Both the position numbers and the translations under genes were made by a program. Shown piece by piece: positions 43,201-47,235 of a DNA stretch of 64,000 nucleotides (position 1 is its first letter; the number at the start of each line of letters is the position of its first letter). Below the pieces are notes generated by a model. That model did no database searches, was not told the origin of the DNA, and was given only the letters and a program-made list of their open reading frames with translations. The stretch covers positions 8,680,001-8,744,000 of the forward strand of contig OX597825.1 in the NCBI GenBank assembly GCA_951406725.2, written 5' to 3'. Origin of the DNA: Octopus vulgaris (lineage: Eukaryota).

Positions 43201-43488
43201 ATATATATATATATATATATATAATATATATATATATATACATATATATATATATGTATATATATATATACATGTATATATATATATATATATATACTAA
43301 GTAATTAAGGGTTTAGCAACGAATTGCCTCACCAACACACCGAATTTAGAAATAGCAGTCAAAGAGATATAGCTATTCCTTCTACCAAAAGGGGGATCTC
43401 AGTAAAAACACACCACTTGAAAGGCAAACACAGACAGGTAAGAAAGAAAGAATGAAATGACGGCAATCTATCATGCAATTTTAAGTTA

Positions 43489-45351
43489 CCTACGGACGTA
43501 CGTTTCGAGATCAAGTTTTAGGATAGCATAAGAATTAGAAAATTCTACTTTACCCAAACTTCTTCTCTCATCTGCGCAGGATACGACAATTATGAATAAT
43601 TGTATATTAAATTTTGAGATACTAGAATGCATCATCTCAACTCAGTGTCAGAGCGAGCCAAAGCATGACCAGTACCACGAAATTCAAAGTTTGAATGAAA
43701 GTTTGTGTCACCAGCCCCCTTCCACCCGCGTGTAGCCAAGACAAAATGCTGCGGTCATTCACTGGATAAAATATGGTTATCAGTAGTAATAATAAAGGGT
43801 GAAATTAATTAATTAGGGATAATTATCAATTACACCAAGTAGATTTCGGCATGTAAAAGCCCCATTCGAGGAAAATTTAAGTAATACTAAGTAATTAAGG
43901 GTTTAGCAACGAATTGCCTCACCAACACACCGAATTTAGAAATAGCAGTCAAAGAGATATAGCTATTCCTTCTACCAAAAGGGGGATCTCAGTAAAAACA
44001 CAGCACTTGAAAGGCAAACACAGACAGGTAAGAAAGAAAGAATGAAATGACGGCAATCTATCATGCTATTTTAAGTTACCTACGGACGTACGTTTCGAGA
44101 TCAAGTTTTAGGATAGCATAAGAATTAGAAAATTCTACTTTACCCAAACTTCTTCTCTCATCGGCGCAGGATACGACAATTATGAATAATTGTATATTAA
44201 ATTTTGAGATACTAGAATGCATCATCTCAACTCAGTGTCAGAGCGAGCCAAAGCATGACCAGTACCACGAAATTCAAAGTTTGAATGAAAGTTTGTGTCA
44301 CCAGCCCCCTTCCACCCGCGTGTAGCCAAGACAAAATGCTGCGGTCATTCACTGGGATAAAATATGGTTATCAGTAGTAATAATAAAGGGTGAAATTAAT
44401 TAATTAGGGATAATTATCAATTACACCAAGTAGATTTCGGCATGTAAAAGCCCCATTCGAGGAAAATTTAAGTAATACTAAGTAATTAAGGCTTTAGCAA
44501 CGAATTGCCTCACCAACACACCGAATTTAGAAATAGCAGTCAAAGAGATATAGCTATTCCTTCTACCAAAAGGGGATCTCAGTAAAAACACAGCACTTGA
44601 AAGGCAAACACAGACAGGTAAGAAAGAAAGAATGAAATGACGGCAATCTATCATGCAATTTTAAGTTACCTACGGACGTACGTTTCGAGATCAAGTTTTA
44701 GGATAGCATAAGAATTAGAAAATTCTACTTTACCCAAACTTCTTCTCTCATCGGCGCAGGATACGACAATTATGAATAATTGTATATTAAATTTTGAGAT
44801 ACTAGAATGCATCATCTCAACTCAGTGTCAAAGCGAGCCAAAGCATGACCAGTACCACGAAATTCAAAGTTTGAATGAAAGTTTGTGTCACCAGCCCCCT
44901 TCCACCCGCGTGTAGCCAAGACAAAATGCTGCGGTCATTCACTGGGATAAAATATGGTTATCAGTAGTAATAATAAAGGGTGAAATTAATTAATTAGGGA
45001 TAATTATCAATTACACCAAGTAGATTTCGGCATGTAAAAGCCCCATTCGAGGAAAATTTAAATAATACTAAGTAATTAAGGGTTTAGCAACGAATTGCCT
45101 CACCAACACACCGAATTTAGAAATAGCAGTCAAAGAGATATAGCTATTCCTTCTACCAAAAGGGGGATCTCAGTAAAAACACAGCACTTGAAAGGCAAAC
45201 ACAGGCAGGTAAGAAAGAAAGAATGAAATGACGGCAATCTATCATGCAATTTTAAGTTACCTACGGACGTACGTTTCGAGATCAAGTTTTAGGATAGCAT
45301 AAGAATTAGAAAATTCTACTTTACCCAAACTTCTTCTCTCATCGGCGCAGG
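43489..45351 (-). ncRNA. Four tandem type I hammerheads (43489-43580, 44079-44170, 44669-44760, 45260-45351)
   Basis: Reverse complements of the plus-strand motif; the outermost copy has core CAGATGA, the others CCGATGA. Confidence 0.8.
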
Positions 45352-45547
45352 ATACGACAATTATGAATAATTGTATATTAAATTTTGAGATACTAGAATG
45401 CATCATCACAACTCAGTGTCAGAGCGAGCCAAATCAAACTTTGAATTTCGTGGTACTGGTCATGCTTTGGCTCGCTCTGACACTGAGTTGAGATGATGCA
45501 TTCTAGTATCTCAAAATTTAATATACAATTATTCATAATTGTCGTAT

Positions 45548-46820
45548 CCTGCGCCGATGAGAGAAGAAGTTTGGGTAAAGTAGAATTTTCTAATTATTAT
45601 GCTATCCTAAAACTTGATCTCGAAACGTACGTCCGTAGGTAACTTAAAATAGCATGATAGATTGCCGTCATTTCATTCTTTCTTTCTTACCTGTCTGTGT
45701 TTGCCTTTCAAGTGCTGTGTTTTTACTGAGATCCCCCTTTGGTAGAAGGAATAGCTATATCTCTTTGACTGCTATTTCTAAATTCGGTGTGTTGGTGAGG
45801 CAATTCGTTGCTAAACCCTTAATTACTTAGTATTACTTAAATTTTCCTCGAATGGGGCTTTTACATGCCGAAATCTACTTGGTGTAATTGATAATTATCC
45901 CTAATTAATTAATTTCACCCTTTATTATTACTACTGATAACCATATTTTATCCCAGTGAATGACCGCAGCATTTTGTCTTGGCTACACGCGGGTGGAAGG
46001 GGGCTGGTGACACAAACTTTCATTCAAACTTTGAATTTCGTGGTACTGGTCATGCTTTGGCTCGCTCTGACACTGAGTTGAGATGATGCATTCTAGTATC
46101 TCAAAATTTAATATACAATTATTCATAATTGTCGTATCCTGCGCCGATGAGAGAAGAAGTTTGGGTAAAGTAGAATTTTCTAATTCTTATGCTATCCTAA
46201 AACTTGATCTCGAAACGTACGTCCGTAGGTAACTTAAAATAGCATGATAGATTGCCGTCATTTCATTCTTTCTTTCTTACCTGTCTGTGTTTGCCTTTCA
46301 AGTGCTGTGTTTTTACTGAGATCCCCCTTTTGGTAGAAGGAATAGCTATATCTCTTTGACTGCTATTTCTAAATTCGGTGTGTTGGTGAGGCAATTCGTT
46401 GCTAAACCCTTAATTACTTAGTATTACTTAAATTTTCCTCGAATGGGGCTTTTACATGCCGAAATCTACTTGGTGTAATTGATAATTATCCCTAATTAAT
46501 TAATTTCACCCTTTATTATTACTACTGATAACCATATTTTATTCCAGTGAATGACCGCAGCATTTTGTCTTGGCTACACGCGGGTGGAAGGGGGCTGGTG
46601 ACACAAACTTTCATTCAAACTTTGAATTTCGTGGTACTGGTCATGCTTTGGCTCGCTCTGACACTGAGTTGAGATGATGCATTCTAGTATCTCAAAATTT
46701 AATATACAATTATTCATAATTGTCGTATCCTGCGCCGATGAGAGAAGAAGTTTGGGTAAAGTAGAATTTTCTAATTCTTATGCTATCCTAAAACTTGATC
46801 TCGAAACGTACGTCCGTAGG
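45548..46820 (+). ncRNA. Three tandem type I hammerheads (45548-45639, 46138-46229, 46729-46820)
   Basis: cctgcg / CCGATGA / gaga..aagttt...aaactt..tctc / GAAA / cgtacg / TC / cgtagg. Confidence 0.8.
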
Positions 46821-47235
46821 TAACTTAAAATTGCATGATAGATTGCCGTCATTTCATTCTTTCTTACCTGTCTGTGTTTGCCTTTCAAGTGCCGTGTTTT
46901 TACTGAGATCCCCCTTTTGGTAGAAGGAATAGCTATATCTCTTTGACTGCTATTTCTAAATTCGGTGTGTTGGTGAGGCAATTCGTTGCTAAACCCTTAA
47001 TTACTTAGTATTACTTGAAATCTACTTGGTGTAATTGATAATTAATTAATTTCACCCTTTATTATTACTATATATATATATATATATATATATATATATA
47101 TATATATATATATATATATATATATATATATATATATATATATATATATATATATATATATATATATATGTATATATATATATATGTATATATATATACA
47201 TATATATATATGTGTTTATATATATATATATATAT

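Follow-up and report, generated by a model that had tools for sequence, protein, structure and literature searches.

Animal non-LTR retrozymes are non-coding tandem repeats in which each unit carries a type I hammerhead, and their expression as linear and circular RNA has been demonstrated (PMC7229834; bioRxiv 10.64898/2026.07.22.740005). The view that they ride on PLEs has so far been based on co-occurrence and pLTR homology. For Xenopus retrozymes one of nine predicted dimers was cleaved. Going by the accessible text of the two sources, the octopus family described here, which is known from DNA, resembles animal retrozymes in its non-coding tandem units with a type I hammerhead, its monomer GC content of 37%, the self-pairing of the predicted circle, the co-occurrence of autonomous PLEs and the predominance of short arrays. 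It differs from them in the U4C core and the 61-nt stem II of its dominant subfamily, and in that its copies are dispersed insertions with a TA target, head-to-head arms and paired ends. PLE integration marks on retrozymes are not described in the available parts of either source, and the word “inverted” occurs 0 times in those of PMC7229834. In the present family these marks sit on the retrozyme copies themselves.

Such marks are known from EN+ Neptune-type PLEs. Like our family these show partial tandems, an inverted 5’-truncated copy, a one-ended tail, microsatellite targets, two internal RT start sites and a repeat that contains a hammerhead, to the extent covered by the accessible sections (PMC8557442; PMC3846280; PMC11167929). 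In contrast to them our family lacks an ORF, its tail measures about 90–110 nt versus 30–40 nt, and the pairing of one end of each kind, which we counted in 36 of 37 palindromes, is given only qualitatively for EN+ PLEs in these sections. The origin of tandem and inverted PLE insertions is described as undefined in the available text of PMC8557442. The same text covers non-autonomous Chlamydomonas PLEs such as MRC1, which are also non-coding, multicopy in head-to-tail order, pLTR-like and mobilised in trans. These elements share 3’ sequence with known autonomous families, whereas we found no partner among 51 loci with PLE protein matches; most Chlamys are without canonical hammerheads, again according to the available text. 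PLE-associated minimal and variant hammerheads as well as newt and axolotl satellite hammerheads have a short palindromic helix III like the motif studied here, although our helix II is much longer than that of the PLE-associated hammerheads in the accessible part of PMC4209133. In the same part, opposite-strand hammerhead pairs 100–700 bp apart are already noted for Schistosoma. Earlier publications already cover retrozymes, one-ended tails and the inversion of PLE ends. For the family itself, which the first-pass annotation had suspected to be new, we found no description in the articles searched on octopus hammerheads and retrotransposons, and for the count of end pairings no precedent in those on Penelope/Neptune elements and twin priming.

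Structure of the array

The window analysed here comprises 64 kb of Octopus vulgaris DNA. The first-pass annotation had proposed a 3.8-kb palindromic array that changes orientation at 45433/45434, lies between (TA)n tracts and consists of near-identical monomers with no credible ORF, all of which was confirmed. By self-BLAST two head-to-head arms of 3.6 and 2.8 monomers of 590–591 nt were delimited, with about 99% identity between monomers and three short deletions in the outermost right monomer. Monomer positions (q) are numbered from q1 = window position 46024.

about 43169..43296, no strand: left-flank (TA)n target microsatellite (sequence)
43294..45433, minus strand: left arm, about 2,140 nt, 3.6 monomers, sense strand minus (self-BLAST)
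43294, minus strand: outer (3’) end of the left arm, site A, monomer position q401
45434..47070, plus strand: right arm, 1,637 nt, 2.8 monomers, sense strand plus (self-BLAST)
45434..45465, plus strand: unpaired junction spacer, 32 nt without mirror partner, 5’ start of the right arm
47070, plus strand: outer (3’) end of the right arm, site B, q501, about 100 nt past site A (the “tail”)
about 47069..47236, no strand: right-flank (TA)n target microsatellite (sequence)

With three monomers in a row, reading frames reach at most 49 aa when they start with ATG and at most 67 aa from stop to stop. Matches to PLE proteins were absent from the 64-kb window. The circularised monomer has a predicted folding energy of -152 kcal/mol (z -5.1 versus 46 shuffles). 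The locus and its relatives share several features with retrozymes: tandem units with one type I motif each (using a descriptor that leaves core position 4 free), non-coding sequence, low GC content with strong self-pairing, and dispersed young copies. The monomer had been thought long for an animal retrozyme, which is not so: in the accessible text of the preprint the published consensus lengths of ray-finned fish span 51–972 bp with a mean of 650 bp (bioRxiv 10.64898/2026.07.22.740005). The 32-nt spacer, for which BLAST gives an offset of 29 nt with a 3-nt overlap, is present at this locus but is not a trait of the family, in which junction offsets range from 0 to 295 nt over 54 loci.

The hammerhead motif

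Seven type I hammerheads had been annotated in the array. Seven motifs with a three-helix fold are indeed present at a spacing of 590–591 nt, but their core is never canonical. They share stem I (CCUGCG/CGUAGG), a 61-nt stem II, GAAA, CGUACG and a GUC site. The 5’ core strand reads CCGAUGA (U4C) in six of the seven copies and CAGAUGA (U4A) in the copy at 43580; canonical CUGAUGA occurs in none. The cut previously predicted after C45633 is at the correct position for the motif.

43489..43580, minus strand: hammerhead, U4A core (private change), predicted site after 43495 (descriptor)
44079..44170, minus strand: hammerhead, U4C core, predicted cut after 44085 (descriptor)
44669..44760, minus strand: hammerhead, U4C core, predicted cut after 44675 (descriptor)
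45260..45351, minus strand: hammerhead, U4C core, predicted cut after 45266 (descriptor)
45548..45639, plus strand: hammerhead, U4C core, predicted cut after 45633 (descriptor)
46138..46229, plus strand: hammerhead, U4C core, predicted cut after 46223 (descriptor and fold)
46729..46820, plus strand: hammerhead, U4C core, predicted cut after 46814 (descriptor)

The relaxed hammerhead descriptor matched none of 2,000 dinucleotide shuffles of the monomer, and the fold of the motif has a z of -2.8. The Rfam search suggested in the first-pass annotation gave 46 matches with E≤1 (window positions 40000–50000), but hammerhead families were not represented; the matches were microRNA and snoRNA models only, below their cut-offs, on the TA tracts and the junction hairpin. 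U4C is a natural hammerhead variant with considerably lowered activity in vitro (PMC3088659). Because the core is U4C, cleavage of transcripts into units of about 590 nt is less sure than initially stated. A subfamily with the canonical core exists and is about 89% identical. A sister family retains the hammerhead fold although its stem I is another one, still paired throughout and with both sides changed in 3 of 6 pairs; the cores of this family are of the U3-G8 type. Covariation among 13 hammerhead variants within the family was not above that of shuffles. By analogy the short palindromic helix III suggests that the motif may act as a dimer. A catalogue of PLE hammerhead variants, reportedly compiled by Lunse et al. 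in 2017, may cover the U4C core. This core is not described in the available text of PMC4209133.

A young and dispersed family of palindromic arrays

We found 335 exact hammerhead matches with the U4C core and 70 with the U4 core in the 2.8-Gb assembly, corresponding to at least 405 copies. The ribozyme 3’ half alone gave 935 matches, which include further subfamilies. We sampled 100 of the 335 U4C and 30 of the 70 U4 pattern places together with the 40 best-scoring loci, and analysed 98 loci. The 40 best-scoring loci show 96–100% identity and are spread over many contigs. The studied array belongs to a non-coding family that is young and dispersed. Among the 98 loci 54 are arranged head-to-head, 44 have a single orientation and none is tail-to-tail; the palindrome is the normal form of the family and not a rare event. 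The longest arms reach 10 monomers in tandem. The majority sequences of the U4 and C4 subfamilies are distinguished by 48 differences, so that subfamilies evolve as whole monomers. Arrays with the U4C core are not significantly longer than those with U4 (median longest arm 737 versus 682 nt, p 0.47); arms with two or more monomers were found in 14 of 52 and 1 of 18 cases, respectively. The flanks consist of (TA)n, and the duplicated flank found at one locus (L035) when checking for target-site duplications sits inside a compound repeat.

It is highly improbable that these palindromes are artefacts of assembly or fold-back, or that unequal crossing-over produced them as a satellite on the spot. 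The same architecture with the same two ends and different junctions recurs at 54 loci, which are spread over many contigs. The two arms are unlike in length and in alleles, and contigs from public runs of three studies bridge the monomer junction and join the ends at about q401 and q500 to (TA)n. In favour of growth on the spot, higher-order periodic variants occur at three loci, where local duplication may contribute. The public contigs stem from four runs with guessed RNA status, and their depth therefore says nothing on expression.

Two end sites and a structured 3’ element

The outer ends of the arms are not distributed evenly. 134 of 152 fall into two windows about 100 nt apart (sites A and B), and 132 of 152 family 3’ ends adjoin TA-rich DNA. 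Of the 37 palindromes with both ends in these windows, which were set post hoc after inspection of the data and leave 17 of 54 palindromes with an end outside, 36 are A+B, one is B+B and none is A+A (p 2.8e-10 against 50%). The rule of one end of each kind is unusually strict. In addition, for 15 palindromes of the sister family that were chosen for a B end, the other arm ends at A in 12 and at B in none. Arm lengths are uncorrelated (rho -0.03). In contrast, for the Anolis PLE no difference in the use of start sites was seen between the two strands in vitro (PMC11167929), and the single inverted copy examined from a 775-aa PLE family of the octopus genome has the same end site on both arms. 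The pairing results in a sharp prediction for the existing in vitro PLE assay, namely that one strand is primed at A and the other at B.

A second arm might also arise by fold-back self-priming of a single cDNA or by self-priming on an antisense template, the latter being proposed for rotifer PLEs in the accessible text of PMC3846280. Near-mirror junctions are in excess, as would fit such an origin: offsets of up to 60 nt were observed at 22 of 54 loci (12.1 expected, p 0.002) and offsets of up to 10 nt at 7 (2.3 expected, p 0.007), and the studied locus with its 29–32 nt belongs to the former. However, 32 of 54 offsets exceed 60 nt, and the other fixed site as the stop of the second arm in 36 of 37 palindromes is left unexplained. 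Two cDNAs annealing through local hairpins would also give small offsets. In 7 of the 36 A+B palindromes neither of the two arms forms part of the other, so that two primings are needed there, and we consider fold-back origin of the second arm unlikely overall.

Site A lies within, and site B next to, a structured and conserved 3’ element of the monomer:

46374..46510, plus strand: 3’ element, about 140 nt, one monomer shown, present in each (conservation and consensus fold)

It folds into a long-range helix around a hairpin and an AT-rich loop that holds site A (46424–46433), with a terminal hairpin just upstream of site B (46519–46537). The element retains 73–79% identity in sister families, whereas the rest of the monomer has diverged. 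In the consensus fold one-sided changes preserve the pairs; two-sided covariation is scarce. Judging from this conservation the element may serve as docking and priming element for a PLE protein, which makes its roughly 140 nt a candidate minimal cis element.

The family carries all insertion marks of PLEs, i.e. the microsatellite target, the inverted 5’-truncated copy and the one-ended tail. The earlier reading of the array as a retrozyme-like non-coding hammerhead multimer with PLE-type inversion is supported by its anatomy, by the family and by the paired ends. The array is very probably a recent insertion of a non-autonomous retrozyme by Neptune-like PLE machinery, with both target strands primed at two fixed RNA sites.

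Alleles and the nature of the template

Whether the template of this insertion was circular is an evenly balanced question. One private allele had the following distribution:

46332, plus strand: locus-private G at q309, all seven monomers of both arms

It occurs exactly seven times in the 2.8-Gb assembly, always at this locus. The idea of a single template that had been raised for the array receives one good argument from q309G. A single-monomer (circular) template would leave this distribution, although conversion between the arms or a missing source could also produce it. The argument is weakened by the private q218A, which is present in only three of the seven monomers and yet on both arms, i.e. 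alleles can be shared between arms without origin in a founding monomer. Divergence within loci is 0.4–0.6% versus 2.1% between loci, and 7 of 21 loci with at least 4 pieces have alleles that are fixed at the locus itself but seldom seen in the sample overall.

The same PLE machinery and paired priming might instead have copied a linear RNA, transcribed from an existing array as a multimer and left uncut. The hammerhead with its weakened core would then be a passenger, and the likeness of the monomers would come from a homogeneous source, conversion or unequal exchange. This is a real but less probable option. It is in line with the U4C core in 335 of 405 exact matches, with the U3-G8 cores of the sister family and with the Anolis PLE, for which uncut RNA is the main substrate in vitro and hammerhead mutants are without effect on insertion (PMC11167929). 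Also in its favour, the private alleles q218A and q520T of the studied locus both lie in monomer two of either arm, counted inwards from the outer end; allele register from the 3’ end was not significant in the overall test (p 0.75). One mixed array (L047) contains seemingly private alleles that also occur at four other loci, and private counts based on the sample are therefore upper bounds; the possibility that its two alleles at q316 came from one damaged template base was dropped, as both were found at other loci. 5’ ends are not enriched at the cut site (881 matches directly behind it versus 935 directly in front, with patterns that also catch other subfamilies), nor does within-locus variation pile up there. 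Period-2 and period-3 variants in L054, L068 and L069 require multimeric templates or later duplication. Against a linear template, copying could only shorten arrays, yet arms reach 10 monomers; in addition, q309G is confined to this locus in all seven units and the hammerhead fold is kept across families.

The circular form of the PLE insertion model, in which an endonuclease-bearing PLE would act in trans, has in our estimate about an equal chance of being right or wrong. A multimeric copy would be transcribed, and its hammerheads, dimerised via their palindromic stem III and with a rate reduced by U4C, would free 591-nt units, some of which would be circularised. A PLE protein would bind the structured 3’ element and cut both (TA)n strands, using site A to prime one cDNA and site B to prime the other. 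On this shared template each reverse transcriptase would go round a varying number of times. Joining of the cDNA ends bluntly or via microhomology would leave a head-to-head palindrome with a tail on one arm only. More tentatively, and with somewhat less than even confidence, we propose that one PLE complex uses the two fixed sites on one and the same circular ribozyme RNA to prime both cut (TA)n strands, with both reverse transcriptases rolling round this RNA. If true, this would explain the tandem, inverted and one-ended-tail structures of PLEs together; the 591-nt unit would be a cis-sufficient substrate, and the slow U4C hammerhead would be tuned such that full circles or short multimers persist for copying. 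Should the U4C ribozyme be able to cut and circles be formed, rolling-circle retrotransposition in animals could be tested cleanly with this family. Should it be unable to cut, the family would show that an efficient ribozyme is not needed for the spread of retrozyme arrays.

Search for an autonomous partner

The genome contains two young PLE families with ORFs of 781 and 775 aa, which comprise RT, a CxxxxCxxC linker and GIY-YIG and end in (TA)n. As partners with a homologous pLTR both were ruled out, their pLTRs being unrelated to the monomer. Among 51 loci with PLE protein matches we detected neither a PLE with a monomer-homologous pLTR nor the tail motif downstream of a PLE ORF; from the GIY-YIG candidates 150 of 6,136 were scored and 30 cut out. 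An exact look-up of nine PLE ORFs gave no match, and a homologue search yielded no named cephalopod protein among the 120 matches listed, the named ones coming mostly from marine-invertebrate symbiont assemblies. Searching for diverged 3’ elements led to a second non-coding family and not to an ORF-bearing one. The upstream sequence common to L203 and L209 turned out to be an unrelated repeat.

The first-pass annotation had named an ordinary PLE remnant as the outcome that would refute it. In that case an autonomous PLE would have the monomer as its pseudo-LTR and would have left the arrays as truncated by-products. We regard this as improbable. None of the 98 sampled loci has a PLE ORF joined to the monomer, and PLE fragments near four of them are separate insertions. 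The pLTRs of the two young PLE families are unrelated, up to 10 monomers stand directly in a row, and subfamilies change as entire monomers. Nevertheless, the TA target, the inverted 5’ copy, the one-ended tail and the type I hammerhead are PLE hallmarks in the accessible text of PMC8557442 and PMC3846280, and the loci sampled are only part of the family.

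Anatomy of the array and its hammerheads

The array consists of two arms of 590-591-nt units, about 99% identical to each other, which are joined head-to-head with 32 bases lacking a partner at the junction and flanked by (TA)n tracts on both sides:

43294-45433, minus strand: left arm, 3.6 monomers
45434-47070, plus strand: right arm, 2.8 monomers

The longest ATG-started ORF of the monomer is 49 aa. In all these respects the palindrome described in the first-pass annotation (two arms of ~590-nt units, head-to-head joint, 32-nt spacer, (TA)n flanks, no credible ORF) was recovered. 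The seven type I hammerhead motifs listed there were likewise found, 3 on the plus and 4 on the minus strand and every one directed outward, while their noncanonical core had been overlooked: the 5' core strand reads CCGAUGA, with C for U at core position 4 (U4C), in six and CAGAUGA in one. Our hammerhead descriptor matched none of 2,000 shuffled monomer sequences. The Rfam scan that had been proposed as a check returned no hammerhead match in the array. Stem III consists of two pairs closed by a palindrome and is computed to fold only as a dimer (-11.2 kcal/mol), the same dimer type as in the animal hammerheads covered by the accessible part of PMC4209133. According to an excerpt of PMC3088659, U4C “considerably decreases activity in vitro”, yet viroid infectivity is still possible.

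Family members in the genome

The window sits on a 90-Mb contig of the 2.8-Gb assembly. Searching the assembly with the monomer gave 2,017 candidates, the best 40 of which were scored and yielded 187 matches; full-length matches among these 40 loci are 96-100% identical to the monomer. By exact pattern the assembly holds 335 U4C cores, 70 U4 cores, 668 copies of a 3' motif and 935 copies of the ribozyme's 3' half, the last including further subfamilies. We analysed 98 loci (the best 40, plus 38 drawn from the leading 100 of the 335 U4C places and 20 drawn from the leading 30 of the 70 U4 places), a sampling by which copies too short for the ribozyme 5' half fall outside the set. The U4 subfamily has the same architecture at about 89% identity. 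A sister non-coding family of about 556 nt (L184-L213, L220, L221; 2,147 candidates) has the 3' element in common at 73-75% identity; its hammerhead keeps stem III and has a U3 core, mostly U3-G8 and once U3-A8; stem I differs in sequence but is still fully paired. Further subfamilies repeat at about 583, 594 and 601 nt and have the ribozyme 3' half in common with the main family. Further-subfamily places include:

G000:C1:10836841-10838643: ribozyme 3'-half pattern
C1:19849433-19850037: ribozyme 3'-half pattern
C1:112537415-112539353: ribozyme 3'-half pattern

In public-run contigs from three studies the monomer junction is bridged and A- and B-like ends lie on (TA)n, which supports the reality of the family and has no bearing on its expression. 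The window array is a genuine, recent insertion, and its family is a new one of an already known kind. Animal non-LTR retrozymes are an established class (PMC7229834, in part), and the available text of a 2026 preprint (bioRxiv 10.64898/2026.07.22.740005) gives unit lengths of 51-972 bp and makes the case that such units derive from PLEs and are non-autonomous. Neither class nor length of the monomer is therefore new, and the earlier impression of an unusually long monomer has to be dropped; that no description of the family was known there agrees with our search of partly accessible literature.

Palindromes with one end of each kind

The feature most deserving specialist notice is a one-of-each rule for the outer ends. 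The 98 loci comprise 54 head-to-head palindromes and 44 copies in a single orientation; no tail-to-tail arrangement occurs. Counting monomer positions (q) from window 46024, 81 of the 152 outer ends map to site A (q389-414, chiefly 401 and 410) and 53 map to site B (q490-522); TA-rich DNA adjoins 132. Both ends lie in the A/B windows in 37 palindromes, which comprise 36 A+B, one B+B and no A+A (p = 2.8e-10 for the A+B pairing against even odds, with windows drawn after seeing the data). The sole B+B case is an 80-nt scrap without TA flank, and the window array itself has one A and one B end. Of the other 17 palindromes, 12 have an A end and 4 a B end opposite an end outside both windows, and 1 has neither. 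In the sister family, 15 palindromes picked for a B end showed A opposite in 12 and B opposite in none.

Arm lengths within palindromes are independent (rho -0.03), and at 7 of the 36 A+B loci neither arm is contained in the other. The 54 junctions are blunt (21), overlapping by at least 2 bases (20) or carry inserts (13), with offsets of 0-295 nt; near-mirror joins are in excess (≤60 nt in 22 of 54 versus 12.1 expected). Within a conserved long-range helix, site A occupies an AT-rich loop; site B comes directly after a terminal hairpin. Changes between families in this 3' element mostly preserve pairs on one side, and two-sided covariation is scarce.

Relation to Penelope-like elements

The family behaves like a PLE-mobilised retrozyme: it has retrozyme anatomy and mobility, with a candidate hammerhead whose core departs from the canonical one. 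PLEs are known for inverted copies, a one-ended tail and insertion into microsatellites (PMC8557442 and PMC3846280, each in excerpt), and the tail has been linked in vitro to two start sites (PMC11167929, accessible portion). In the route we infer, a non-autonomous RNA would be bound at its structured 3' element, most likely by a Neptune-like PLE protein; the (TA)n tract would be cut on both strands. Site A would serve to prime one strand and site B its partner, giving two cDNAs of mutually independent length that would then be joined. In the partly accessible literature searched, which included PMC6765202, we found no account of the family, of a tail of 90-110 nt, of U4C as the dominant core of a retrozyme or of any tally of the end rule; parts of this may be covered in Repbase, Dfam and Lunse et al. 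2017.

The first-pass annotation had asked whether the monomer exists only as the pLTR of full-length Penelope copies; none of the 98 loci has a PLE ORF joined in cis. Two young PLE families of the genome, with 781-aa and 775-aa RT + GIY-YIG frames, both terminate in (TA)n; their pLTRs are unrelated to the monomer, so no partner emerged from this comparison. One inverted 781-aa copy has A+B-like ends, and one inverted 775-aa copy has the identical end site on both arms. The 775-aa hammerhead core, CCGAAGA, also has C at position 4.

The Neptune-like 781-aa element (L100-L109, e.g. L106:681-5526) further has an overlapping upstream 479-aa frame matching no known family, CCAAT/TGACGTC-rich repeats in the 3' region, and a U3-A8 hammerhead-like motif. 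The 775-aa element (e.g. L111:1830-4980) is very young, the 150 scored of 19,930 candidates being about 100% identical over a 201-aa query, and its copies often form head-to-head pairs or 4.27-kb tandems.

Circular or linear-multimer template

Divergence among monomers rises from 0.4% inside an arm to 0.6% between the two arms and 2.1% across loci. The variant q309G is present in all seven window monomers and nowhere else in the assembly, as expected if one unit was read repeatedly for both arms. A source array absent from this haplotype, or conversion, could also account for it, since q218A, likewise window-private, occurs in 3 of 7 units and on both arms, three loci show period-2 or period-3 variants, and alleles seemingly private to the 13-unit locus L047 recur at four other loci. 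The allele register test was not significant, and 5' ends did not pile up at the predicted cut site. For an Anolis PLE, the portion of PMC11167929 available gives uncut RNA as the main substrate, with hammerhead cleavage only in the presence of protein. We put the chances that the template was a circle, through putative circularisation and rolling, at about even.

At one locus (L172:1294-3691) five units have T, C, A, C and T as the first nucleotide following the predicted cleavage position. A ligation junction that was misread could explain this, but the position is a CpG; across loci, variation at this base is not enriched (2/61).

Other features

An older head-to-head insertion, the second in the window, also lies in (TA)n and belongs to a different family; its arms are 81% identical, and only the left arm has a longer tail, which ends in the main family's tail motif. 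Its plus strand bears a type I hammerhead with canonical core (core at 12064; fold z -2.9). The frame ending in a zinc finger may be similar to the C-terminal end of an ORF from an RTE-type LINE, and the 196-aa frame may be a host exon.

295-885, minus strand: open frame of 196 aa with many S, T, A and N residues
11676-12297: older head-to-head insertion
24647-24917: diverged two-copy tandem, 141 bp
29520-29936, minus strand: frame ending in C2H2 zinc finger
30277-30842: diverged two-copy tandem, 292 bp
36778-37145: diverged two-copy tandem, 185 bp

Unrelated type I hammerhead motifs in the flanks of six loci (L077, L073, L107, L153, L061, L088) suggest that the genome holds many hammerhead-bearing repeat families.
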